From: an uncultured Acidobacteriota bacterium | Lineage (GTDB): Bacteria; Acidobacteriota; Thermoanaerobaculia; Multivoradales; UBA5704 | Direction: 5' to 3' | DNA length: 64,000 nucleotides | Assembly: GCA_963770895.1 (NCBI GenBank) | Contig: CAVYRF010000002.1 | Coordinates: forward strand, 832,001-896,000 | Shown: piece by piece, positions 2,243 through 14,430 of the stretch | How the letters are laid out: every line of letters starts with the position of its first letter | Numbering within the stretch: the stretch's first letter is position 1 | The notes under the pieces: model-generated | What the model saw: only the letters and a program-made list of their open reading frames with translations | What the model was told of the DNA's origin: nothing | Database searches by the model: none | Translations under genes and position numbers: made by a program

Positions 2243-2726
2243 GGACCCCTCGCGCCGCACGCGCTTCGGCCGCCGGTCCCGCCGGTGTCTCGCGCGCCGC
2301 GCAGCTCTTGCAGAAGCCGTTGATCTGCAAGCTGTGGGCGGTGGGCAGGAAGCCGTGGGCGCGGCAGATCTCCGCCTGCAAGGCGGCGATGCCGGGGCTC
2401 ACGAACTCCACCACCCTGCCGCAGGCGGTGCACACCAGGTGATCGTGTCGCTGGCCGCCATGGACGTGCTCGTACAGGAAGCGCCGCCGGCCCAGCCGCT
2501 GCCGCCGCACCAGGCCACTCTCCACCAGCAGCTCCAGGTTGCGGTACACCGTGGCGCGCGAGATCTTCAAGCCGCGCTGCCGCACCGCCGCCAGCAGCTG
2601 CTCGGCATCGATATGCCCATGCTGGCGGAACACTTCGTCCAGCAGCGTCAGCCGCTCGGCGGTGACCCGCTGGCGCCGCTCCCGCAGGAAGCTGAGAAAC
2701 CGGTCTTTTTCACGCTGATCTTGCAT
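2235..2726 (-). CDS. fur: Fur-family transcriptional regulator
   Basis: RVTAER, HIDAE, SRATVYRNL, HDHLVCTACG and CKSC motifs. Confidence 0.92.
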   Translation of the reverse strand: MQDQREKDRFLSFLRERRQRVTAERLTLLDEVFRQHGHIDAEQLLAAVRQRGLKISRATVYRNLELLVESGLVRRQRLGRRRFLYEHVHGGQRHDHLVCTACGRVVEFVSPGIAALQAEICRAHGFLPTAHSLQINGFCKSCAARETPAGPAAEARAARGVHG

Positions 2727-2763
2727 GGCACCGCCACGAACCCCAGCTCACCCACTCCCTAAT

Positions 2764-2778
2764 TGAGATTCTATCTCA
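2764..2778. promoter_or_regulatory. Fur-box-like 7-1-7 palindrome
   Basis: TGAGATT-C-TATCTCA directly upstream of fur and the iron uptake operon. Confidence 0.7.
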
Positions 2779-2962
2779 GTAGGGATCCAGATTGTGGACG
2801 GAACCAGTCCAGTTTGTCAACCTGCGGGGACCGCGAGCCGCTCCCGCGCGGGGCCGGGCGGCGCCGACCTGCAGCTGGCGGTGCATCTCACGGCCGGGCG
2901 GTCCGGGAATGCGGCTGCGCAGCGCCGGCCGGGCGCCGGCGCGCGCGACCAGGGGGGAGGGG

Positions 2963-4303
<1,341 letters not shown>

Positions 4304-4489
4304 GCCGTGTTCTCCTTTGTTTCAGCTGGGCGGGCACCTGCGTCCTGCAGCTGGCGGGCACCTGCGGCGCTCCGTGCAGCCGAGCCCCAGGCCGGATTCT
4401 AGCGTCTGGCCGAGAGCAGGCGCAACCAAGGAGCTCGCGGGGCCGGTCCCGCGGCGTCGCGGCGCGGCGGGCCGCCGCGGCGCCTGGGC

Positions 4490-4870
4490 TCAGGGCTCGT
4501 AGGCGGCGCAGGCGGTGTCGTTTTCCCACACCTCGACCCGCACCACGGCCAGGCCTCGCCCGTCGCCGTCGGCGGGCAGGCGCCCCGCGACCTCGTCGAA
4601 GACGTAGGCGGCGAGCAGCTCGGCGGTGGTGTTGCGCTGATCGAACGGCGGCACCTCGTTGAGGACGCGGTGATCGAACGGCCCCAGGATCTCGCGCACG
4701 ATCGCCTTCAGGTCGGAAAAGTCGAGCACCATGCCGAGCTGGTCCAGGCGCTCGGCCCGCAGGTGCACGCGCACCCGGTAGTTGTGGCCGTGCAGGTTCT
4801 GGCAGCCGCGGGTGTGGCCGCGGATGGCGTGCGCCGCCGAAAACGAGAAATCCTTGAAGATGGAGTGCAT
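4490..4870 (-). CDS. queD: 6-carboxy-5,6,7,8-tetrahydropterin synthase
   Basis: FSAAH, CQNLHGHNY, DHRVLN, TTAE; ATG at 4870 within the longer ORF 4490..5956. Confidence 0.93.
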   Translation of the reverse strand: MHSIFKDFSFSAAHAIRGHTRGCQNLHGHNYRVRVHLRAERLDQLGMVLDFSDLKAIVREILGPFDHRVLNEVPPFDQRNTTAELLAAYVFDEVAGRLPADGDGRGLAVVRVEVWENDTACAAYEP

Positions 4871-5907: not shown

Positions 5908-6064
5908 GGCGCGCGATTGTACTCCCGTGTGACAGCGATCCAGGATTTTGAACCAAAGGGAATCGTCAGGATACCTACCGTGTTGCAGGATAGGACGGGT
6001 GTTTGGGAGTAGAGCCCGTTCGCGGAGGCGTTCCTCCGACAATCTCCATAACTCCCTCTCCTCC

Positions 6065-6100
6065 CCCCGCATCGTCTCCCTCCACGGTGCGGGGCTTTTT
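6065..6100 (+). terminator. Rho-independent terminator with a CUCCCUCC loop (3' end of a candidate sRNA)
   Basis: Stem CCCCGCATCGT/ACGGTGCGGGG, loop CTCCCTCC, followed by CTTTTT. Confidence 0.7.
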
Positions 6101-6146
6101 ATTGCCCGCGGGAGCATAATGGGCGGGTCCTCTGGCTTCGATTCCA

Positions 6147-7622
6147 ATGTCCGACCGCATCACCCTACCCCTGTGGCTGGTCCTGGTGCTGCTGCTGCTC
6201 GCCAGCTGGGCAACCCTCGACCGGCTGCTGGTGCCCAGCGTGCGGTGGTACCTGCGGCGGCGGGTCAACCGCGTCATCGACGAGCTCAACGCACGGCTCA
6301 AGATCGGCATTCAGCCGTTCCAGCGCACCCGCCGCCAGGTGCTCATCGACCGCCTGCTGTACGACCCGTCGGTGCTGCAGGCGGTCGACCTGTCCGCCCG
6401 CGAAAGCCACGTGCCGCGCGAGGTGCTGCTGGCGGACGTGGAGCGCTACGCGCGCGAGATCGTGCCGGCGTTCAACGCCTACTTCTACTTCCGCCTGGGC
6501 TACTGGCTGTCGCGATGGTTCGCCCGCCTGCTGTTTCGCGTGCGCCTGGCCGCCGTCGACGAAGCCGGCCTGGCGGCGGTGCCCGCCGACTCGACGGTGG
6601 TCTTCCTGATGAACCACCGCAGCAACATGGACTACATCCTGGTCACCTACCTGGCCGCCGACCGCACGGCGCTGTCCTACGCGGTGGGCGAATGGGCGCG
6701 CATCTGGCCGCTGCAAACCCTCATCCGCGCGACCGGCGCCTATTTCGTCCGCCGCAACTCGCGCGACCCTCTGTATCGCCGCGTCCTTTCGCGCTACATC
6801 CAGATGGCGACGGCGGCCGGCGTCACCCAGGCCGTCTACCCCGAGGGGGGGCTGTCGCGCGACGGCCATCTGCGCCCGCCCAAGCTCGGCCTGCTCGATT
6901 ACATGCTGCGCAGCTTCGATCCCCAGGGCGAGCGCGACCTGGTGTTCATCCCCGTCGGTCTCAACTACGACCGCACGCTCGAAGACCGGACGCTGCTGCT
7001 CGACGTCGAACCGCGCCCGGACGCCAGGCCGCGGCGGGCGGCCGGCACCACCGCGCGCTTCGTGCTGCGCCAGCTGGCGCTTGCGGCGCGCAGCCGCTGG
7101 CACCGCTTCGGCTACGCCTGCGTCGTCTTCGGCAGGCCGATCTCGATGCGGGCGTACCTGGGGGCGCACGGGCTCGATTTTCGCGCGCTGCCGGCGGCTG
7201 AGCACTCGGCGCACCTGGAAGCGCTGGGCACTGAGCTGATGGCGGCGGTCGGCGCCGTCATACCGGTCGTGCCGGTGGCGCTGATGGCGGCGGTCTTCGT
7301 CGAACGGGCAGAACGGGGTCTGCCGCCGCTTTCGCCGCTGGAATTGAAGGCCGCGGCCTACCGGCGGATGGCCGACCTGGCGCTGGCCGGCGCCACGGTC
7401 TACGTGCCGCGGCGCGATCAGGACTACGCCATCGAAGCCGGTCTGCGCATGCTGACCCTGCGCCACCTGGTCGAGGAGCGCCAGGGGCTGTTCGCCGCCA
7501 ATCCCGCGGAGCTGACCCTGCTGCGCTACTACGCCAACTCGATCGATCACTTCCGCGCCGCGCCCGCCGCCGCCGCCGCCGCAACGCAACTCGCCGCCGC
7601 CGGCGCCGTATCCAGCGGTTGA
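6147..7622 (+). CDS. Glycerol-3-phosphate/lysophospholipid acyltransferase (PlsB/PlsC-like)
   Basis: NHRSNMD (HX4D), YFVRR and YPEGGLSRDG motifs; N-terminal TM helix. Confidence 0.88.
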   Translation: MSDRITLPLWLVLVLLLLASWATLDRLLVPSVRWYLRRRVNRVIDELNARLKIGIQPFQRTRRQVLIDRLLYDPSVLQAVDLSARESHVPREVLLADVERYAREIVPAFNAYFYFRLGYWLSRWFARLLFRVRLAAVDEAGLAAVPADSTVVFLMNHRSNMDYILVTYLAADRTALSYAVGEWARIWPLQTLIRATGAYFVRRNSRDPLYRRVLSRYIQMATAAGVTQAVYPEGGLSRDGHLRPPKLGLLDYMLRSFDPQGERDLVFIPVGLNYDRTLEDRTLLLDVEPRPDARPRRAAGTTARFVLRQLALAARSRWHRFGYACVVFGRPISMRAYLGAHGLDFRALPAAEHSAHLEALGTELMAAVGAVIPVVPVALMAAVFVERAERGLPPLSPLELKAAAYRRMADLALAGATVYVPRRDQDYAIEAGLRMLTLRHLVEERQGLFAANPAELTLLRYYANSIDHFRAAPAAAAAATQLAAAGAVSSG

Positions 7623-7635
7623 CCCCCCTCGCGCC

Positions 7636-8979
7636 ATGCGGACCCAACGACGCAGCACCGGCCATCGCAGCACCAGCGCCTGGCGCATCCAGCCGCCGGG
7701 GTCGGAGCCGGACACCACCGCCCCGCCAACCAAAAAGCCCAAGAAACAACGGCGCCAGCGGGACCGCAAGGGGCCCGGCCTGGCCGAGCGGCTGCTGGAC
7801 TTCCTGCGCGAATACACCGCGGGCGTCAACACCGGCGAGGTCAAGCGCCTGTTCCGGCGTGACGCCACCAGCGCCTACTCGGTGCTGACCCGCGAGCATG
7901 CCGAGCTGCCGCAGCCGAAGCCCGGTCTCAAGCGCCTGCTGTTCCGCGTCAAGCTCGCCTTCCTGGGTCTGTCCTACAAGCTGACCCCGGCACGGCGGAT
8001 GCTCTTTGCCGCCTCCCTGATCTGCCTGGTCGTGGCGCTCATGTCGGGCAGCTGCCGCGTCGACATGGAGTCGCACCATCGCATCACCCACCTCTCGATC
8101 GACTTCTCGCCGATCCTGTTCGTGGCCTGCGCCGGCGGCCTGGTCTTCCTGCTGGCGCTGGAGCTGGTCGACCGCATCCGCGTGCGCGACGAGCTGGAAG
8201 TGGCGCGCGAGCTGCAGGCCGAGCTGCTGCCGCACGGCACCATCGACCTGCCGGGCTACCGGATCGCCCACTCCTACCGCACCGCCAACGAGGTGGGAGG
8301 CGACTACTACGAGGTGATCCAGCTGCCGGACGGCAGGGTGGCCCTGATGGTCGGCGACGCCACCGGGCACGGCATGGCCGCCGGCCTGGTGATGGCGATC
8401 GCCAACGCCACGCTCAAGACCGCTCTGGACCTGGACCCCGATCCCCGCCGCGTGCTGGCGCTGCTCAATCGCACTCTCTGCCGCACCGGCACCCGCCGCA
8501 CCTTCATGACCGTCTTCTACGCCCTGCTCACCCCCGCCACCGGCGAGCTGGTCGCGATCAGCGCCGGCCACCCCTACCCGGTGCTGCGCCGGGCAGCCGG
8601 CGGCATCGAAGAGCTGGGGCGCGGCGGCCTGCCGCTCGGGGTCCGGGACCACCTGGCGCCCGAGCCGCAGACGACGACGCTCGCGCCTGGCGACATGCTG
8701 CTGCTCTACACCGACGGTCTGGCCGAGGCGATCAACGCCAACTCCGAGGCTTTCGGCTACGACCGCATCGCCTCGCTCACGCGCCTGGGCGGCGCGCCGC
8801 AAGAGGTGCACGACCGCGTGCTGGCAAACTTCGACTTCCACATCGGCGGCGAGCCGCTGCGCGACGACCTCACCCTGCTGGTCGTCGCGCGCGACAGGGC
8901 GGCCCCGACCGCCGCCGTCGGCGCTGCCACCGCCGCCGCTGCCGGGACCGCGGCTCCCCTGCCCGTCGGTCCGGCATGA
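7636..8979 (+). CDS. Membrane-anchored PP2C phosphatase (SpoIIE/RsbU family)
   Basis: GGDYY, GDATGHG, SAGHP, YTDGLAE and DDLT motifs; two TM helices. Confidence 0.9.
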   Translation: MRTQRRSTGHRSTSAWRIQPPGSEPDTTAPPTKKPKKQRRQRDRKGPGLAERLLDFLREYTAGVNTGEVKRLFRRDATSAYSVLTREHAELPQPKPGLKRLLFRVKLAFLGLSYKLTPARRMLFAASLICLVVALMSGSCRVDMESHHRITHLSIDFSPILFVACAGGLVFLLALELVDRIRVRDELEVARELQAELLPHGTIDLPGYRIAHSYRTANEVGGDYYEVIQLPDGRVALMVGDATGHGMAAGLVMAIANATLKTALDLDPDPRRVLALLNRTLCRTGTRRTFMTVFYALLTPATGELVAISAGHPYPVLRRAAGGIEELGRGGLPLGVRDHLAPEPQTTTLAPGDMLLLYTDGLAEAINANSEAFGYDRIASLTRLGGAPQEVHDRVLANFDFHIGGEPLRDDLTLLVVARDRAAPTAAVGAATAAAAGTAAPLPVGPA

Positions 8980-9800
8980 AGCGCGCGACCGGCGGCGATG
9001 TTCGCCGGAGCGACCGCGGCGAGCGGCCGCCGCGGTGGTTCGCCGTGCCGCTGACCGACGCCCTCAACGGCCTGGAGCTGTGCCTGGGCGGCGGCTGGCG
9101 CGGGCTGGCGCTGATCGCCGCCGGGATGCTCGCGGGGTGGTGGGTCTACGTGCCGGTGCACGAGCTGCTGCACGCGGCGGGCTGCTGGCTGGCCGGCGGC
9201 GCGGTGCGGCGGCTGGAGATCGGCACGCTCTACGGCGGCGCGGCGCTGGCCCGCGTGCTGCCCTTTGTCGTCGGCGGCAGCGACTACGCCGGGCGCCTCT
9301 CGGGCTTCGACACCAGGGGCAGCGACCTGGTGTACCTGGCGACCGACCTGTGCCCCTTCCTGCTCAGCGTGTTTCCCGGCGTCTGGTGGTTGCGCCGCGC
9401 CGCCCGCGGCCGCCACCCTGTGCTGTTCGGCGCTTCGCTGCCGGTGGCGCTGGCGCCGTTTCTGTCGCTGACCGGCGACGCCTACGAAATCGGCTCGATC
9501 CTGGTCACCCGGCTGCCGCCCTGGGCGGCGCCCGCGGTGCGCCAGCTGCTGCGCGGGGACGACCTGGGGCTGCGCTGGAGCGCCCTGAGCGCGGCGGCGG
9601 CCGCGTGCGGCGGCAGCGCCGGCGCCGTCAGCGCCGCGCTCGGACCTTGCGCCGCGGCGCTGTCGCGCCTGCGGGAGGGATGCGTGTTGGCCGCGCTGGC
9701 CGGGCTCGGCTGGGCGCTCCTCACCTACGGGTGCGGCGCCGCCGTGGCGCGCGCCGCCGGACAGCCTGCCTTGCGGCCGGCGCCGCCGCCTACTGGCTGA
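8976..9800 (+). CDS. Membrane protein with HExxH motif (putative M50-like metalloprotease)
   Basis: HELLH right after a TM segment, later GDAYE; start overlaps the upstream stop (ATGA). Confidence 0.6.
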   Translation: MKRATGGDVRRSDRGERPPRWFAVPLTDALNGLELCLGGGWRGLALIAAGMLAGWWVYVPVHELLHAAGCWLAGGAVRRLEIGTLYGGAALARVLPFVVGGSDYAGRLSGFDTRGSDLVYLATDLCPFLLSVFPGVWWLRRAARGRHPVLFGASLPVALAPFLSLTGDAYEIGSILVTRLPPWAAPAVRQLLRGDDLGLRWSALSAAAAACGGSAGAVSAALGPCAAALSRLREGCVLAALAGLGWALLTYGCGAAVARAAGQPALRPAPPPTG

Positions 9801-10821
9801 GCTTTTCCCAGTCGGCGTCGGGAGCGTCCAGCGAGATCGCCAGGCCGCCGTCCGAACCGGCGAAGACCGGGTCCTTGACCACCCGGACCTTGCCGCCGCC
9901 CACCGCCGCCAGCTCCTGCTCCAGGCGCGGGCCGAGGTTGCGGATCAGGCCGGTGCCGCCCGAAACGATGATGTTGTTGCGCACCTTTTCCTGGTATTCG
10001 GGCTGCACGCGCGACAGCAGGTCGAGCATGCTTTCCACGATCGGCGGCAGCAGCCCCTCGCAGGCCTGGCGCATCTCCTGGGTGATGTCGATCGGCGTCG
10101 GCTTGCCGTTGACCGGCACGGTGACCACCACCGGGTTGCGCGAGGCGCCGACGAAGCTGGCCTCCTCCTTCCACAGGCGCACCATGTGGATCGAAAACCG
10201 CGCCTCGGGAAAGCGCTCGCGCACCAGCCGCGACAGCTGCTCGTCGACCCAGTCGCCGGCCGCGGTCAGGGTGCGCTGGTCTTCTTCGGCCGGCAGGCGG
10301 CCGTTCATGACACAGAAGTCGGTGGTGCCCGCGCCCAGGTCGATGATCATGGTGTGCAGCAGCGCTTCCAGACCGTAGGCGACGGCAAAGGGCTCCGACA
10401 CGATCATCAGGCTGTCCACCGCCCCGGCGATCGCCTTGCGCACGTTCTGCTTGTTGACCCGCAAGGCCTCGGCGGGCACGCCGACCACCGCGCGCACCTT
10501 CATGCCTTCGCGCGTCTCGCGCGCCACGCCGACCAGCGACAGCAGGTGCCACAGCAGCTCGCGCACCGCCGCTTCGTCCTTTTCGGAGCCGTCCTTGATC
10601 AGACCCTGCTCCAGCGGCCGGTGCAGATCGAGCATCGAACGGTTGTCCAACGCCTCGCGGCCGACCAGCACCGGCTTTTTGAGCACCTTGCGCGCCACCA
10701 TGTCGAGCGGCCAGCCGACGTAGCTCTCGACCACGTGGCGCTGGCCGTTGGAGGCGGAGATCGAGCTGCGAGAGGTGCCCAGGTCGATGCCGACATGGAG
10801 GACAGGCCTGGTCTCGGTCAT
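9790..10821 (-). CDS. MamK-like actin ATPase
   Basis: GIDLGTS, VGVPA, SEPFAVAYG, IIDLGAGTTD, EEDQRTLTAAGDWVDE, QPEYQ, VKDPVFAG; closely parallels MamK as I recall it rather than MreB. ATG at 10821. Confidence 0.85.
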   Translation of the reverse strand: MTETRPVLHVGIDLGTSRSSISASNGQRHVVESYVGWPLDMVARKVLKKPVLVGREALDNRSMLDLHRPLEQGLIKDGSEKDEAAVRELLWHLLSLVGVARETREGMKVRAVVGVPAEALRVNKQNVRKAIAGAVDSLMIVSEPFAVAYGLEALLHTMIIDLGAGTTDFCVMNGRLPAEEDQRTLTAAGDWVDEQLSRLVRERFPEARFSIHMVRLWKEEASFVGASRNPVVVTVPVNGKPTPIDITQEMRQACEGLLPPIVESMLDLLSRVQPEYQEKVRNNIIVSGGTGLIRNLGPRLEQELAAVGGGKVRVVKDPVFAGSDGGLAISLDAPDADWEKLSQ

Positions 10822-10886
10822 GCGGTCAAATTCCTTTCCGTCCGGCTCGGTGCGCTGCGCGACTGGCCAAGCGGGACACCGGGTGG

Positions 10887-11912
10887 CTAGTGCCCGGCGC
10901 CGCGGGCGGCGCTGGCGTACGCCCGCAGCCCTTCCGCCAGGGCCAGGGCAATATATTGGCGATACAGCGGTTTGGCCAGCAGCTGCGCCTCCTCGTTGTT
11001 GGACAGGCACGACACTTCGGCGAGGATGGCCGGCATCTGCGTCGACAGCAGGACGATGAACGGCGCCGATTTGACGCCGCGGTCCTCCACCTTGGGATTC
11101 ACCTTCCCCAGCGAGCGGAACAGGGACGCCTGGACCATCTGCGCCAGCTGGCGCGACTTGTCCTGGCGCACCCCGGCGTAGATACGGTCGAGCAGCTGGC
11201 GCATGTCGGCCATCGAATAGCCCGAGCCGCGGTTCTCCGAGGCCGCCAGCCGGCTGAGCGCCGGATCGTTGGTAGGTCCCAGGAAGTAGGTTTCGACGCC
11301 GCGCGCCGCGTGGTTCTCGATCCAGTTGACGTGCACCGAAACGAAGACGTCCGCCCCCTGCCGGTTGGCGATCGCGGCGCGCTCGGCCAGCGAGATCGCG
11401 CTGTCGTCGCTGCGGGTCATCACCACCTGGAAGACTCCCTGGTCTTCCAGCAGCTGGCGCAGGCGCTGCGCGATGTCCAGGGTGATGTCTTTTTCGAGCA
11501 CTCCCGAGGGCGTCCGGGTGCCGCGACTGTCGCCGCCGTGGCCGGCATCGATGGCGACCTTGCGCACCGCCAGCGGCAGCACGGCCGCGTCGATCGCCGG
11601 CGCCGGCGACGACAGGCCGGGGATCGCCGCGCCGGGCGACAGGGCCGCGGCCAGTCCGGATGGCGAGGCCGCGGCAGGCACGGTGCGCAGCGCCGGCGGG
11701 TTGGTCCGGCTGCTGAGCAGGCCGGTCGCACCCACCAGCGCGCTGGACACCAGCAGGAGGGCCAGCGCGCCCGCCCAGCGCAGCCGGCGGCGGCGCCCGC
11801 GGGAGCGGCGCACCGCCGCCGCGGCCTGTCCCTGCCACAGCTCGACGTTCTGCTGCACCAGGTCCTGCACCATGCGGCGCTTCACACGATCGAGATTGGG
11901 CTGCGACCACAT
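10887..11912 (-). CDS. N-acetylmuramoyl-L-alanine amidase (Amidase_3) with N-terminal TM anchor
   Basis: IDAGHGG, EKDITL, SVHVN and LAEVSCLSN carry the zinc/catalytic residues; no AMIN domain before the catalytic domain. Confidence 0.92.
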   Translation of the reverse strand: MWSQPNLDRVKRRMVQDLVQQNVELWQGQAAAAVRRSRGRRRRLRWAGALALLLVSSALVGATGLLSSRTNPPALRTVPAAASPSGLAAALSPGAAIPGLSSPAPAIDAAVLPLAVRKVAIDAGHGGDSRGTRTPSGVLEKDITLDIAQRLRQLLEDQGVFQVVMTRSDDSAISLAERAAIANRQGADVFVSVHVNWIENHAARGVETYFLGPTNDPALSRLAASENRGSGYSMADMRQLLDRIYAGVRQDKSRQLAQMVQASLFRSLGKVNPKVEDRGVKSAPFIVLLSTQMPAILAEVSCLSNNEEAQLLAKPLYRQYIALALAEGLRAYASAARGAGH

Positions 11913-11924
11913 ACCGCGCGCCTG

Positions 11925-14162
11925 CTATCGGGTGCCGATGTGGATGCGCAGCTGGCGCGGACCAGGCTCGATGGCGGTGAGCACCGCATCGGGCCGGGCC
12001 AGGTCCAGCACGACGTGCAGTTCCTGCGGCGGATGGTAGCCGGTGCGGATCTGCTGCACCTCGGCGGAGCTGACGCCCAGCCGCGCGCTGGCAAAGGGCC
12101 GCGTGATGCCGCTGATCCTGATCACTTCGCGCGCCGCCGGGCCGGCGATGCGAGCTTCGGTCCAGGTGCCGGCGGCGAACTCGCCGTTGCCCCACAGGGT
12201 CACCACCGTGCCGCCGCCATGGGCCGCTTCCCAGGTGATGCGCTGGATCGCCGTGGCGCGGCCCGCGGCCGCGACGCCAGCCTGGCTGGCGGCAGCCTGC
12301 TGCGACGACGCGGGGGTGGAGTCGGTGGACGAACCCTTGGCGCGCACCAGGGGCGGGGGCGCCACGGCGGCAGATGCCTCCTGCCGCGCGGCGCTCCTGG
12401 CGCCGGGGGCGGGAGCGCTCCCCAGGGCAGCGGTGGCGCCGCCGGCCGCGACGCTCGCGGCAGCCCCGGCGCCGGAGCCGGTCCCGCCGGCAGGCCGGCC
12501 GCTGGGCGATGCCGGAGATGCGGGCGACGGGGTGGCCGCCGCAAGCTGGGCGGCGGCGGACGGCGGCGCGGCCGCGGAGGAGTCCGCGGACGGCGGCGAT
12601 TGCGCACCCTGGCCGGCCCCAGCCGGCGCCGGCGACCGCTGCCGCGACGCTTCCAGGGCAGCGGCCATCTCGGGAGTTGCGGCGGTGTCAGAGGTTGGCG
12701 GAGCCGTGGCGGCGCCGGGGCTGGCCGGGAGGGGGAGCCCCCTGCCGGCTCGGCGGGCCGCGGCACCGGGTCCTGCGGCGGCGTCCAGCGAGCCCGGCAG
12801 CACCGGCTGGCGCGGGTTGCGCCGGGTATGCAGCGCGGGTGCGCCGTCAGCAGGCGGCCCGCCGGCCGTATCCGCCGCGGCAGCGGCACCGCGGTGGTCG
12901 AGCCACTCCAGCACCGAGTCGCGCAGCAGGTAGACCGTCACACCCGCCAGGGCCAGCGCCGCCACCAGCCCGATCAGCGGCGCCCGCGAGCGCCGCCGCG
13001 GCGCGCGGTGGTCGAACGCGGCAAACGCGGGAGGCGGCGCCGCCGGACCCGCGGCCGCCGGCGCCGGCGGCGTCAGATCGTCGAGCGCCGGCAGCGTCGA
13101 AGCCATGTGTACCAACGGATCGACGTCCCCATCGGCGGTGGCGGCGCCGGCCACGGATGCGGGATGCCATGGGTCCGGCGGCGCCGTCGGTTCCTGCGGC
13201 CACCCGGTCGACCGCGCAGCGTCTGGCGCCGGCCAGTCCTGCGTGGGCGCCGCGGCACCTGATGGCCGTGCCTGTGCTGGCGCGGCGGCCCCTGCGGGCC
13301 ACTCTTGCGCCGGCGGCGCGGCATCCGACGGCCAGCCCTGACCTGGGGTGGCGGCACCCGAAGGCCAGCCGTCCGGTGCCGCCGGCGCGGCGCCACCCGC
13401 GGGCCACGCACCCGCCGGCGAAGCATTTTCTGCAGGCCAGGAAGACGGTGCCGCACCGGCGGCGGCCCAGCCTGCCTGCACTGCCGCATGGTCCGGCGCG
13501 GGGCGCCCCGGATGCACCGCGGGATCTGCCAGGCCGGCGACAGCCGGATCCGCCGGCGCCAGGGCTTCCAGGGGCGAGCGGGGGGTGATCGCGGGGATGC
13601 CGGGAACGGGCTGGATCGCCGGAATCTCGACGTGCCAGGGCATCGATGACGGCTCCTGCGCCCGCTGGGGACCCGCGGCAGCGGCGCCGACCTCAGGGGC
13701 CTCAGGGGCCTGAGAGACCTGAGGGGCCTGGGCGGCTGGCGCCGCGGACGGCTGGGCCCCCGGCGGCGCCGCGGCGGCCTGCAGCCCCGCCAGATCGAAC
13801 GGCTTGCCGCCGTGCGCCACGTAGTCGTCCACGATCTTGTAGATCAGGTCCTTGCTGCCGGCGCTGAGCTCGAGAAACCGCACCCCCATGCCGGACGGCC
13901 GCTCCGGCCCTTCCGGCCGCACGCGCGTCCAGACCACTTCGCCGCGGCCGCGGATCAGCTCGAAGCCGTCACCCAGGCGGAATTCGAACTCCAGCAGCTG
14001 TCCCGGCGGCTCGGGCGAATCGGTGCGGATGAAAATGCCGCCTGGCGAGATGTTGGCGACGTACTCGTTGATAAAACCGCTGAAGCGGTCGAATTTCAGC
14101 TGGATGCGGTGAGCGACGGGCACGCGTGTGGAGTCGCGCGGGGAGTTTGAGTAGTCGGGCAC
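11925..14162 (-). CDS. PilZ (TIGR02266-like) domain + low-complexity linker + TM + C-terminal AMIN-like domain
   Basis: RDSTR (RxxxR), NISPGG, GEVVW, GMGVRF; TM PLIGLVAALALAGVTVYLL; C-terminal VQQIRTGYHPPQELHVVLDL. Likely GTG start at 14162 (ORF is open to 14249). Confidence 0.78.
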   Translation of the reverse strand: MPDYSNSPRDSTRVPVAHRIQLKFDRFSGFINEYVANISPGGIFIRTDSPEPPGQLLEFEFRLGDGFELIRGRGEVVWTRVRPEGPERPSGMGVRFLELSAGSKDLIYKIVDDYVAHGGKPFDLAGLQAAAAPPGAQPSAAPAAQAPQVSQAPEAPEVGAAAAGPQRAQEPSSMPWHVEIPAIQPVPGIPAITPRSPLEALAPADPAVAGLADPAVHPGRPAPDHAAVQAGWAAAGAAPSSWPAENASPAGAWPAGGAAPAAPDGWPSGAATPGQGWPSDAAPPAQEWPAGAAAPAQARPSGAAAPTQDWPAPDAARSTGWPQEPTAPPDPWHPASVAGAATADGDVDPLVHMASTLPALDDLTPPAPAAAGPAAPPPAFAAFDHRAPRRRSRAPLIGLVAALALAGVTVYLLRDSVLEWLDHRGAAAAADTAGGPPADGAPALHTRRNPRQPVLPGSLDAAAGPGAAARRAGRGLPLPASPGAATAPPTSDTAATPEMAAALEASRQRSPAPAGAGQGAQSPPSADSSAAAPPSAAAQLAAATPSPASPASPSGRPAGGTGSGAGAAASVAAGGATAALGSAPAPGARSAARQEASAAVAPPPLVRAKGSSTDSTPASSQQAAASQAGVAAAGRATAIQRITWEAAHGGGTVVTLWGNGEFAAGTWTEARIAGPAAREVIRISGITRPFASARLGVSSAEVQQIRTGYHPPQELHVVLDLARPDAVLTAIEPGPRQLRIHIGTR
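13190..13470 (-). repeat. Degenerate ~33-bp coding tandem repeat (Trp-Pro-x9)
   Basis: WPAENASPAGA/WPAGGAAPAAPDG/WPSGAATPGQG/WPSDAAPPAQE/WPAGAAAPAQA/RPSGAAAPTQD/WPAPDAARSTG/WPQEP. Confidence 0.8.
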
Positions 14163-14430
14163 CGAGCTACCTTGGAACGGCTCGTCTTGATTGCTGCGGT
14201 CGTCGGGCGCCGCCCATCGTCCCCAGACCTCCGGCCTATCTCCATCCATGCGCGTCGGCCGATAATACCAGCATCGCCGCCCCGAATGGGCTGTTGGCGG
14301 GTGTGCTAGAGTTCAGCTCCCTTTCGAGGGGCGTTCGCACTCCCCTCAATCCCCCTGTCGGGATCGATCATGATCGCAGCAAGGATCGTCGGCGGCTCGC
14401 CACGGGCAGACCGCCGTGGAGTGACTTGGG

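Follow-up and report, generated by a model that had tools for sequence, protein, structure and literature searches.

A three-gene locus in a 64,000-nucleotide (nt) window of contig CAVYRF010000002.1, from an uncultured soil bacterium of the Acidobacteriota (assembly GCA_963770895.1), encodes an actin of the MamK family, a cell-wall amidase that carries a conserved cytoplasmic tail ahead of its transmembrane (TM) segment, and a protein that joins a PilZ domain, a TM segment and an AMIN domain. We found that the conserved core of this locus is the amidase-actin pair and that the PilZ-AMIN protein is a lineage-limited accessory. On balance we lean towards reading the locus as a cytoskeleton-coupled cell-wall amidase, in which the actin and the tail-bearing amidase form the module and the PilZ-AMIN protein is an accessory in the taxonomic order to which the window belongs. 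An earlier note on this DNA had described three closely spaced minus-strand genes, and direct reading of the sequence confirmed this, with gaps of 12 nt between gene 1 (PilZ-TM-AMIN) and gene 2 (amidase) and of 65 nt between gene 2 and gene 3 (actin). By the same reading GGAAAGGAA precedes the actin ATG, and a search for terminator-like sites between the three genes found none. The domain assignments made in that note, namely a PilZ domain with both motifs for cyclic di-guanosine monophosphate (c-di-GMP), a TM segment and an AMIN-like C-terminus in gene 1, an AMIN-less TM amidase and a MamK-like actin, were supported by profile, fold and hydropathy evidence.

We assessed conservation of the neighbourhood at increasing distance from the window. 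Among close relatives, for which 80 loci were kept of 200 relatives (actins 76-92% identical), the amidase lay directly upstream of the actin in 79 of 80, the sole exception being a locus without upstream DNA. In a sample of 401 genomes from the phylum, a MamK-like gene at E≤1e-40 was present in 30, including the window's own genome: 16 of 17 from the same order, 8 of 21 from other orders of its class, and 5 of 362 from outside that class (one of the negatives, G024, is unpublished). A distant set, comprising 20 kb around each of 20 Acidobacteriota actin genes (actin identity 50-79%), had the amidase immediately upstream of the actin in 20 of 20 cases, among them G051 and G220, whose actins share only 50-52% identity with that of the window. 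The stop and start codons of amidase and actin often overlap or abut. A metagenome scan seeded with the G051 actin and a 10-sequence alignment returned 80 loci, and the amidase adjoined the actin in 72 of these and in 61 of the 63 with at least 900 nt of upstream sequence. Within the G051-like clade, 26 long loci had only the actin (26/26) and the amidase (25/26) as conserved neighbours, and a search of these loci for a third conserved gene found none. The converse also held: an ortholog of the tail-bearing amidase was sought in five same-class genomes that lack the actin and none was found, the only matches being to the catalytic part, 35-40% identical, in open reading frames (ORFs) of about 520 amino acids (aa). 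These ~520-aa ORFs, the only amidase matches in the actin-negative relatives, resemble a second, 528-aa amidase of the window's genome.

The third gene had a narrower distribution. Close loci with at least 3600 nt of upstream sequence encoded PilZ and AMIN in 59 of 61 cases, as a single ORF in 56, and two loci (L017 and L022) were without them; the three-gene neighbourhood that the earlier note had asked about is therefore conserved in close relatives (amidase 79/80, PilZ-AMIN 59/61). In the distant set, domain hidden Markov models (HMMs) placed PilZ/AMIN near the actin in only 4 of 20 loci, and none was found within ±10 kb in the 16 others, all of which keep the amidase-actin pair. In one of the four (L131), PilZ and AMIN were upstream of the actin; in two (L126 and L127) the PilZ-AMIN gene lay downstream; and in the last (L124) an AMIN-only protein was encoded downstream and a separate PilZ gene upstream. 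Because L126, L127 and L124 encode PilZ and/or AMIN on the other side of the actin, the association survives rearrangement. In the earlier note it was the PilZ-TM-AMIN protein that connected the filament to the amidase, a role that finds no support in the persistence of the pair without PilZ/AMIN in 16 of 20 distant loci and in the G051-like clade. Spacing also varies, as in the close relative L012 (PilZ 2595-3059, AMIN 4281-4607, amidase 6910-7917), where about 2.3 kb separate the PilZ-AMIN gene from the amidase, compared to 12 nt in the window. Another class of the phylum has a conserved protein of about 165 aa that matches no Pfam family. Its gene overlaps the terminal part of the actin gene (L115:10990-11487, plus strand, and also L114 and L116), and the protein may be a lineage-specific third component.

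The amidase matched Amidase_3 (PF01520) with 168.6 bits over residues 119-330, and its parts follow in the order of a tail of about 45 residues, an arginine-rich stretch, a TM segment, a Pro/Ala linker of about 50 residues, and the catalytic domain. No domain lies between the TM segment and the catalytic domain, a stretch too short for AMIN, and AMIN in cis was seen in no member of the amidase clade. Its H/E/H/E catalytic positions were at least 90% conserved among 160 homologs. The amidase's alignment with AmiA (8c2o) and AmiC (4bin) of E. coli and with AmiB (3ne8) of Bartonella ran unbroken through an AmiA/B/C-type insertion at about residues 215-250, while the CwlV-type amidases 1jwq and 4rn7, which have no such insertion, aligned only outside it (4rn7 in two pieces). 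The insertion, RLAAxENRxSGYS...LLDRIYA, was strongly conserved in the same 160 homologs; in AmiA/B/C it is auto-inhibitory. On the AmiC model (NCBIfam NF038267) the amidase reached 103.2 bits against a cut-off of 700. Given that score and the lack of any clade member with AMIN in cis, the "split AmiC" of the earlier note holds as an analogy, short of a demonstrated history. The genome has two further Amidase_3 genes, of 528 aa and 944 aa, the first of which (G000:C2:1582783-1584369; L242:1284-2870) bears a Cu_amine_oxidN1-like domain, not AMIN, at its N-terminus.

The amidases of the module all begin with the tail motif DRxKRxLLRxLVxxNV(D/E)LxxG, followed by basic residues and the TM segment. 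Two tail residues, K11 and N22, were at least 90% conserved across 58 sequences in which tail identity fell as low as 16%. When an HMM of the motif was run against 66,023 ORFs of the genome, the amidase was found at E 2.7e-9 and the next best match at 0.6; no other carrier of the motif, gene 1 included, was found across the 8.16 Mb.

We then co-folded the actin with the amidase tail, each given as an alignment, in three runs with three controls, and obtained interface scores (ipSAE) of 0.87, 0.88 and 0.88, compared to 0.00 for the best of the three controls. In a benchmark of this co-folding, 58 of 80 solved complexes and 2 of 110 mismatched pairs came up to this mark. The runs shared at least 97% of their contacts, and the partner had a pLDDT of at least 63. 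The predicted interface pairs tail residues 10-28 with actin residues 121-128, 138-155, 174-176 and 329-341, and includes the conserved tail residues K11 and N22. On the actin side the contact site is what we take to be the cleft between subdomains 1 and 3, where WH2 helices bind, and its residues were 90% or more conserved within subclades. In the G051-like clade (14 loci) the actin C-terminus is less acidic (mean charge -1 versus -3) and the tail less basic (+1.5 versus +2.2 to +2.4), a pairing of charges consistent with co-variation of the two sequences. These predictions support direct binding of the amidase tail to the actin. A tail of the amidase's own with a predicted actin site (ipSAE 0.88, best control 0.00) also argues against the earlier note's view that the PilZ-TM-AMIN protein is the link.

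Several points weigh against this reading. The co-fold score is a measure of model confidence, and with our own alignments its calibration holds only roughly. A helix in an actin cleft resembles solved actin-peptide complexes, so that the score could partly be memory. The actin cleft doubles as a longitudinal filament contact, and tail binding might for that reason be confined to monomers or filament ends, or might inhibit assembly. Since the genome has two other Amidase_3 genes, the window's amidase need not be the division amidase. Finally, 2 of the 63 metagenome loci with sufficient upstream sequence (L204 and L224) have a related actin without the amidase; the L204 actin (5968-6999) is nested in the amidase-linked clade and has an M48 peptidase-TPR gene upstream instead. 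That gene (L204:3990-5516, plus strand; Peptidase_M48 and TPR, BepA-like) stands in the amidase's place, which hints that other envelope enzymes can take that position beside the actin.

The actin belongs to the MamK family but lies outside the clade of the representative closest to solved MamK. On NCBIfam models it scored 371.0 bits for MamK (NF040964; cut-off 400), 202 for BeeR (cut-off 530) and 70 for MreB, and in the genome-wide search its MamK score was 371.7 bits, again below the cut-off. Distant members of the amidase-linked clade exceed that cut-off (G051, 417.9 bits; G220, 407.8 bits). Pfam gave MreB_Mbl at 74.2 bits and Actin at 46.3 bits. Its best solved relatives were three MamK entries at about 264 bits, with about half of the residues identical over 335, followed by BeeR (8r2n) at 133 and MreB at about 45. 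The phosphate-binding and catalytic motifs of the actin/ASKHA ATPase fold are intact, and D13, G15, T16, E143, D161, G163, G165 and D168 were invariant in 58 homologs, which together with the conserved catalytic positions of the amidase points to two working enzymes. A separate MreB is encoded in the same genome.

To place the actin we built a quick IQ-TREE of 72 rows, rooted on the genome's own MreB and otherwise holding the window actin, 28 further amidase-adjacent actins, two loci without amidase, and 40 cluster representatives (50% identity) drawn from a search of 1.84 billion proteins (partial representatives omitted, fused ones trimmed to the actin part). The tree holds no named MamK, and bona fide MamK is marked indirectly through representative P0157 (508 bits on the MamK model). 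Against solved MamK, P0157 reached 463 bits, compared to 264 bits for the window actin and 288 bits for the G051 actin. The amidase-adjacent actins, the window's included, formed one 32-row clade (SH-aLRT 99, a quick-search support that is less reliable where branches are long), which also contains P0125, P0169 and the nested L204. P0157 and an FtsZ fusion share another clade, of 8 rows (SH-aLRT 97). The tree check called for by the earlier note put the actin within a well-supported amidase-linked clade (SH-aLRT 99). That note's assignment of the actin to the MamK clade stands as to family (264 bits against 45 for MreB), but the actin's own clade is separate from that of P0157. Names and automatic labels of MamK-family relatives include Nitrospira, Verrucomicrobiota, Gemmatimonadota, ANME-2, Nitrosomonadaceae and Planctomycetota; among the names of the representative clusters, one was "MamK family actin-like protein [Nitrospira sp.]" and the others were generic.

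Many MamK-family proteins are 500-1232 aa long (P0136-P0152 and others) and have a C-terminal actin domain behind a long N-terminal region. We considered whether these are amidase fusions and rejected this, as none of the 10 tested carries an amidase. No Pfam family was found in the N-terminal part of nine of the 10 (P0136, P0137, P0140, P0141, P0142, P0146, P0149, P0151 and P0179). The tenth, P0190, carries FtsZ domains and is a fusion of FtsZ and a MamK-like actin. Four of the five fused forms in the tree cluster together, and the fifth, P0190, is in the P0157 clade.

Gene 1 matched PilZ (PF07238) with 48.1 bits (cut-off 22.5) over residues 38-138 and TIGR02266 with 72.7 bits (cut-off 68.7), and its motifs RDSTR (RxxxR) and NISPGG ([D/N]xSxxG) were conserved in 64 homologs, as the earlier note had read them. 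The domain is a candidate c-di-GMP receptor, and the genome has at least 13 GGDEF genes. With one TM segment and RRRSR on its N-terminal side, PilZ would be cytoplasmic and the C-terminus periplasmic. Two long Ala/Pro-rich linkers are conserved neither in sequence nor in length (383-661 residues after the PilZ start in 61 homologs), and a search of the linkers in these homologs found no conserved linear motif. The C-terminal domain is a divergent AMIN. Pfam AMIN (PF11741) did not match the C-terminal 112 residues even at E≤10, and across the whole genome it found a PilQ-like ORF only. However, a profile of 56 homologs of this domain matched Myxococcus xanthus PilQ (3jc8) at residues 217-281 (domain E 0.0055), which we take to be its AMIN domain, and hhalign aligned it with 29 Pfam-positive AMIN domains from the same class at 98.1% probability (E 1e-13, 94 of 96 columns). 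An AlphaFold model of the domain had nine strands and a pLDDT of 94.9, and Foldseek ranked E. coli AmiC (4bin) first (TMq 0.66, probability 1.00, E 2.8e-3) and PilQ B2 (4aqz) second (TMq 0.67, probability 1.00, E 4e-2). The AMIN-like C-terminus that the earlier note proposed was therefore borne out by hhalign and Foldseek despite the missing Pfam match.

Coordinates of the genes and their parts are listed below. The genome is 8.16 Mb in 3 contigs and 95% complete, and its closest relatives carry the labels Thermoanaerobaculia, Holophagales or Acidobacteriota. Because conservation among 61 homologs of gene 1 begins only near residue 30, a start at the GTG given in the table fits better than the upstream ATG. 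The locus is flanked by unrelated genes encoding a SpoIIE-type phosphatase, an acyltransferase, an epimerase, a saccharopine-dehydrogenase-like protein and a Wzy_C protein. Convergent with the actin gene is a gene for a 274-aa hydrophobic protein without a Pfam family (8976-9800, plus strand), homologs of which lie just downstream of the actin in many close loci and not in distant ones. The membrane-associated SpoIIE/PP2C-type phosphatase (7636-8979, plus strand; 161.9 bits) adjoins the module and is kept in the nearest relatives only.

Genes of the locus and their parts, in window coordinates
Feature	Position	Strand	Details
PilZ-TM-AMIN gene (gene 1)	11925-14249	minus	774 aa counted from ATG 14249; likely start GTG 14162
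Cytoplasmic PilZ domain	13836-14138	minus	PF07238, TIGR02266; motifs RxxxR and [D/N]xSxxG
Single TM segment of PilZ-AMIN protein, about residues 423-445	12915-12983	minus	hydropathy scan; RRRSR on N-terminal side
Periplasmic C-terminal divergent AMIN domain, last 112 aa	11928-12263	minus	hhalign, PilQ profile match, AlphaFold2/Foldseek
Tail-bearing amidase gene (gene 2)	10887-11912	minus	341 aa
Cytoplasmic N-terminal tail of amidase, residues 1-46	11775-11912	minus	conserved motif; predicted actin-docking helix
Amidase TM segment, about residues 46-68, Arg-rich N-terminal side	11709-11777	minus	hydropathy scan and direct reading
Periplasmic Amidase_3 catalytic domain	10923-11558	minus	Pfam residues 119-330; motifs DAGHGG, EKD, VSVHVNW, ILAEVS conserved
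MamK-family actin gene (gene 3)	9790-10821	minus	343 aa

We propose that the core is a two-gene Acidobacteriota module in which a MamK-family actin works with a single-pass inner-membrane amidase of the AmiA/B/C type. The catalytic domain of the amidase would face the periplasm, while its cytoplasmic N-terminus of about 45 residues would present a conserved basic amphipathic helix. This helix is predicted to dock in the intersubdomain cleft of the actin, against residues 138-155 and 174-176 and the acidic C-terminal segment 329-341, a site that would correspond to the target-binding cleft at the barbed end of ParM, where ParR attaches. As the filament assembles, driven by ATP, it would position, gather or carry the amidase along the membrane and thereby set where peptidoglycan cross-links are cut. 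Because the amidase retains an insertion like the one that auto-inhibits AmiA/B/C, its activity is probably gated in addition by clustering or some other factor. In the window's order, the cytoplasmic PilZ domain of the third protein would sense c-di-GMP, a long flexible linker and the TM segment would follow, and the periplasmic AMIN domain would hold on to peptidoglycan; the PilZ-AMIN protein would therefore add a second-messenger input and a wall anchor to the module. Docking of the tail, polymerisation of the actin, recognition of c-di-GMP by PilZ, the place of action in the cell and the physiological role are all inferences. In a broader form, which we put forward tentatively and hold somewhat short of probable, a MamK-type actin subfamily has become the dedicated cytomotive partner of an amidase with a ParR-like docking helix, filament growth or treadmilling moves or switches wall cutting, and the arrangement is a sister use to organelle-positioning MamK, with c-di-GMP wiring in one order.

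Four other explanations of the locus need to be weighed against this proposal. The actin could be a true magnetosome MamK with its partners elsewhere in the genome, as might be suggested by MamK being its best solved relative and by an NCBIfam MamK score near the cut-off. We searched the genome for magnetosome genes, and the best scores were 106.5 bits for MamB (cut-off 350), 34.6 bits for MamP (cut-off 300) and 103.8 bits for MamQ (cut-off 250), a level for MamQ that control genomes reach too; MamI had no match, which is weak evidence since the MamI model matched in no control either. With the genome 95% complete, the actin's clade apart from that of P0157, and the pair recurring in 30 of 401 sampled Acidobacteriota genomes, a magnetosome MamK is hardly credible here. 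The whole-genome search that the earlier note had suggested thus returned MamB, MamP and MamQ below their cut-offs and, in the weak MamI search, nothing, and the non-magnetosome role which it assigned to this MamK relative is supported by the lack of MamB, MamI, MamP or MamQ hits. A second explanation is that the genes are operon neighbours without physical coupling, the actin positioning DNA, an inclusion or an organelle and the amidase being merely co-expressed. MamK relatives do have other partners or fusions (the M48 peptidase of L204, the FtsZ fusion P0190, the long N-terminal extensions), and tail-actin binding is a model-based prediction; nevertheless, near-universal adjacency over 50-92% actin identity, co-absence in 5 of 5 genomes tested, a conserved cytoplasmic tail with no other obvious use on a periplasmic enzyme, and the controlled co-fold result make this explanation quite improbable.

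The two remaining explanations accept coupling and differ from our proposal in how it is achieved. In one, the PilZ-TM-AMIN protein is an obligatory bridge whose cytoplasmic part binds the filament and whose AMIN domain recruits the AMIN-less amidase, giving a functional "split AmiC" under c-di-GMP control. PilZ-AMIN is indeed present in 59 of 61 close loci, its association with the pair is kept in two gene orders, its AMIN identity is confirmed, both PilZ motifs are conserved, and the amidase has no AMIN of its own. However, the protein has no counterpart within ±10 kb in 16 of 20 distant loci, nor in the G051-like clade, and even the close loci L017 and L022 are without it. In addition, gene 1 has neither the tail motif nor any conserved motif in its cytoplasmic linker, while the amidase's own conserved tail is predicted to bind the actin. 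We consider an obligatory bridge unlikely. In the other explanation the module is a transmembrane activation switch, in which the actin, by assembling on the tails, would cluster or strain the amidase and relieve the auto-inhibitory insertion, by analogy with the activation of AmiA/B by FtsEX-EnvC, and position would be secondary. Alignment of the amidase straight through the strongly conserved AmiA/B/C regulatory insertion, a module that encodes no LytM-type activator, and an ATPase as the only conserved partner all point this way. Yet a single TM segment followed by a Pro/Ala linker of about 50 residues is a poor conduit for conformational signals, and the inhibitory role of the insertion in this amidase is suggested by alignment. 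The switch is a minority possibility, and a filament that places a tail-bearing amidase is the explanation we prefer.

The locus ties a MamK relative of about 50% identity to a cell-wall hydrolase in a major soil phylum. On the broader reading, the amidase-linked actin subfamily is a common one in Acidobacteriota and plentiful in metagenomes of soil and sediment; magnetotaxis is not known from this phylum. If the tail-cleft contact is real, it would be a new and simple way for a cytoplasmic filament to direct an enzyme beyond the membrane, with no need of intermediaries of the RodZ, MreCD or FtsEX type, and would offer a short binding peptide for a MamK-type filament. It would also provide a first functional entry point to the cell biology of Thermoanaerobaculia-like Acidobacteria and broaden the question of what the MamK lineage originally did. 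With PilZ-AMIN added, c-di-GMP would be linked to peptidoglycan hydrolysis in an unusually direct way.

A search of the literature outside supplements, which may hold wider trees, found no description of this system. The closest known systems each share part of the arrangement. Magnetospirillum MamK (5LJV, 5LJW, 5JYG) and the window actin match one NCBIfam family model and have the actin ATPase motifs, E143 among them, in common; the window actin differs in scoring below the family cut-off, in its clade being separate from that of P0157, in a genome where no magnetosome genes were found, and in having a peptidoglycan amidase as its partner rather than MamJ or magnetosome proteins. BeeR is described as a MamK-related actin of non-magnetotactic Verrucomicrobiota, with 25-30% identity to MamK and a disordered domain at its N-terminus (PMC11929497). 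The window actin, with 202 bits on the BeeR model (cut-off 530), is much closer to MamK.

MreB-family control of the cell wall extends to hydrolases, and includes the MreB-RodZ elongasome as well as MreBH/LytE and Mbl/CwlO in B. subtilis. More generally, MreB-family actin homologs on the cytoplasmic side govern where wall enzymes act (PMC3817527). The window actin is of a different family (70 bits on the MreB model) in a genome with a separate MreB, and its hydrolase is a TM-anchored amidase with a tail of its own in a module without RodZ- or MreCD-type partners. The likeness to E. coli AmiC, AmiA and AmiB lies in a catalytic domain that aligns in one piece, regulatory insertion included, and in the presence of AMIN in the system. 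In contrast to AmiC, AMIN is on another protein and in some lineages only, and the AmiC model gives 103 bits against 700; unlike AmiA/B/C, the window's amidase is membrane-anchored with a cytoplasmic tail rather than soluble and periplasmic. In FtsEX-EnvC-AmiA/B, a cytoplasmic ATPase is linked across the membrane to an auto-inhibited amidase, whereas the ATPase here is of the actin fold rather than ABC and no LytM activator was seen.

The proposed mechanism also resembles ParM-ParR, in which cargo is attached to a bacterial actin via a short adaptor peptide. The predicted tail site would be the equivalent cleft. R1 ParR binds the barbed end of ParM (PMC6599009). The tail has no sequence relation to ParR, and the actin is of the MamK family. 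Where ParM-ParR acts on DNA through a centromere, the cargo of the system proposed here would be an integral membrane enzyme that bears the predicted actin-binding peptide itself.

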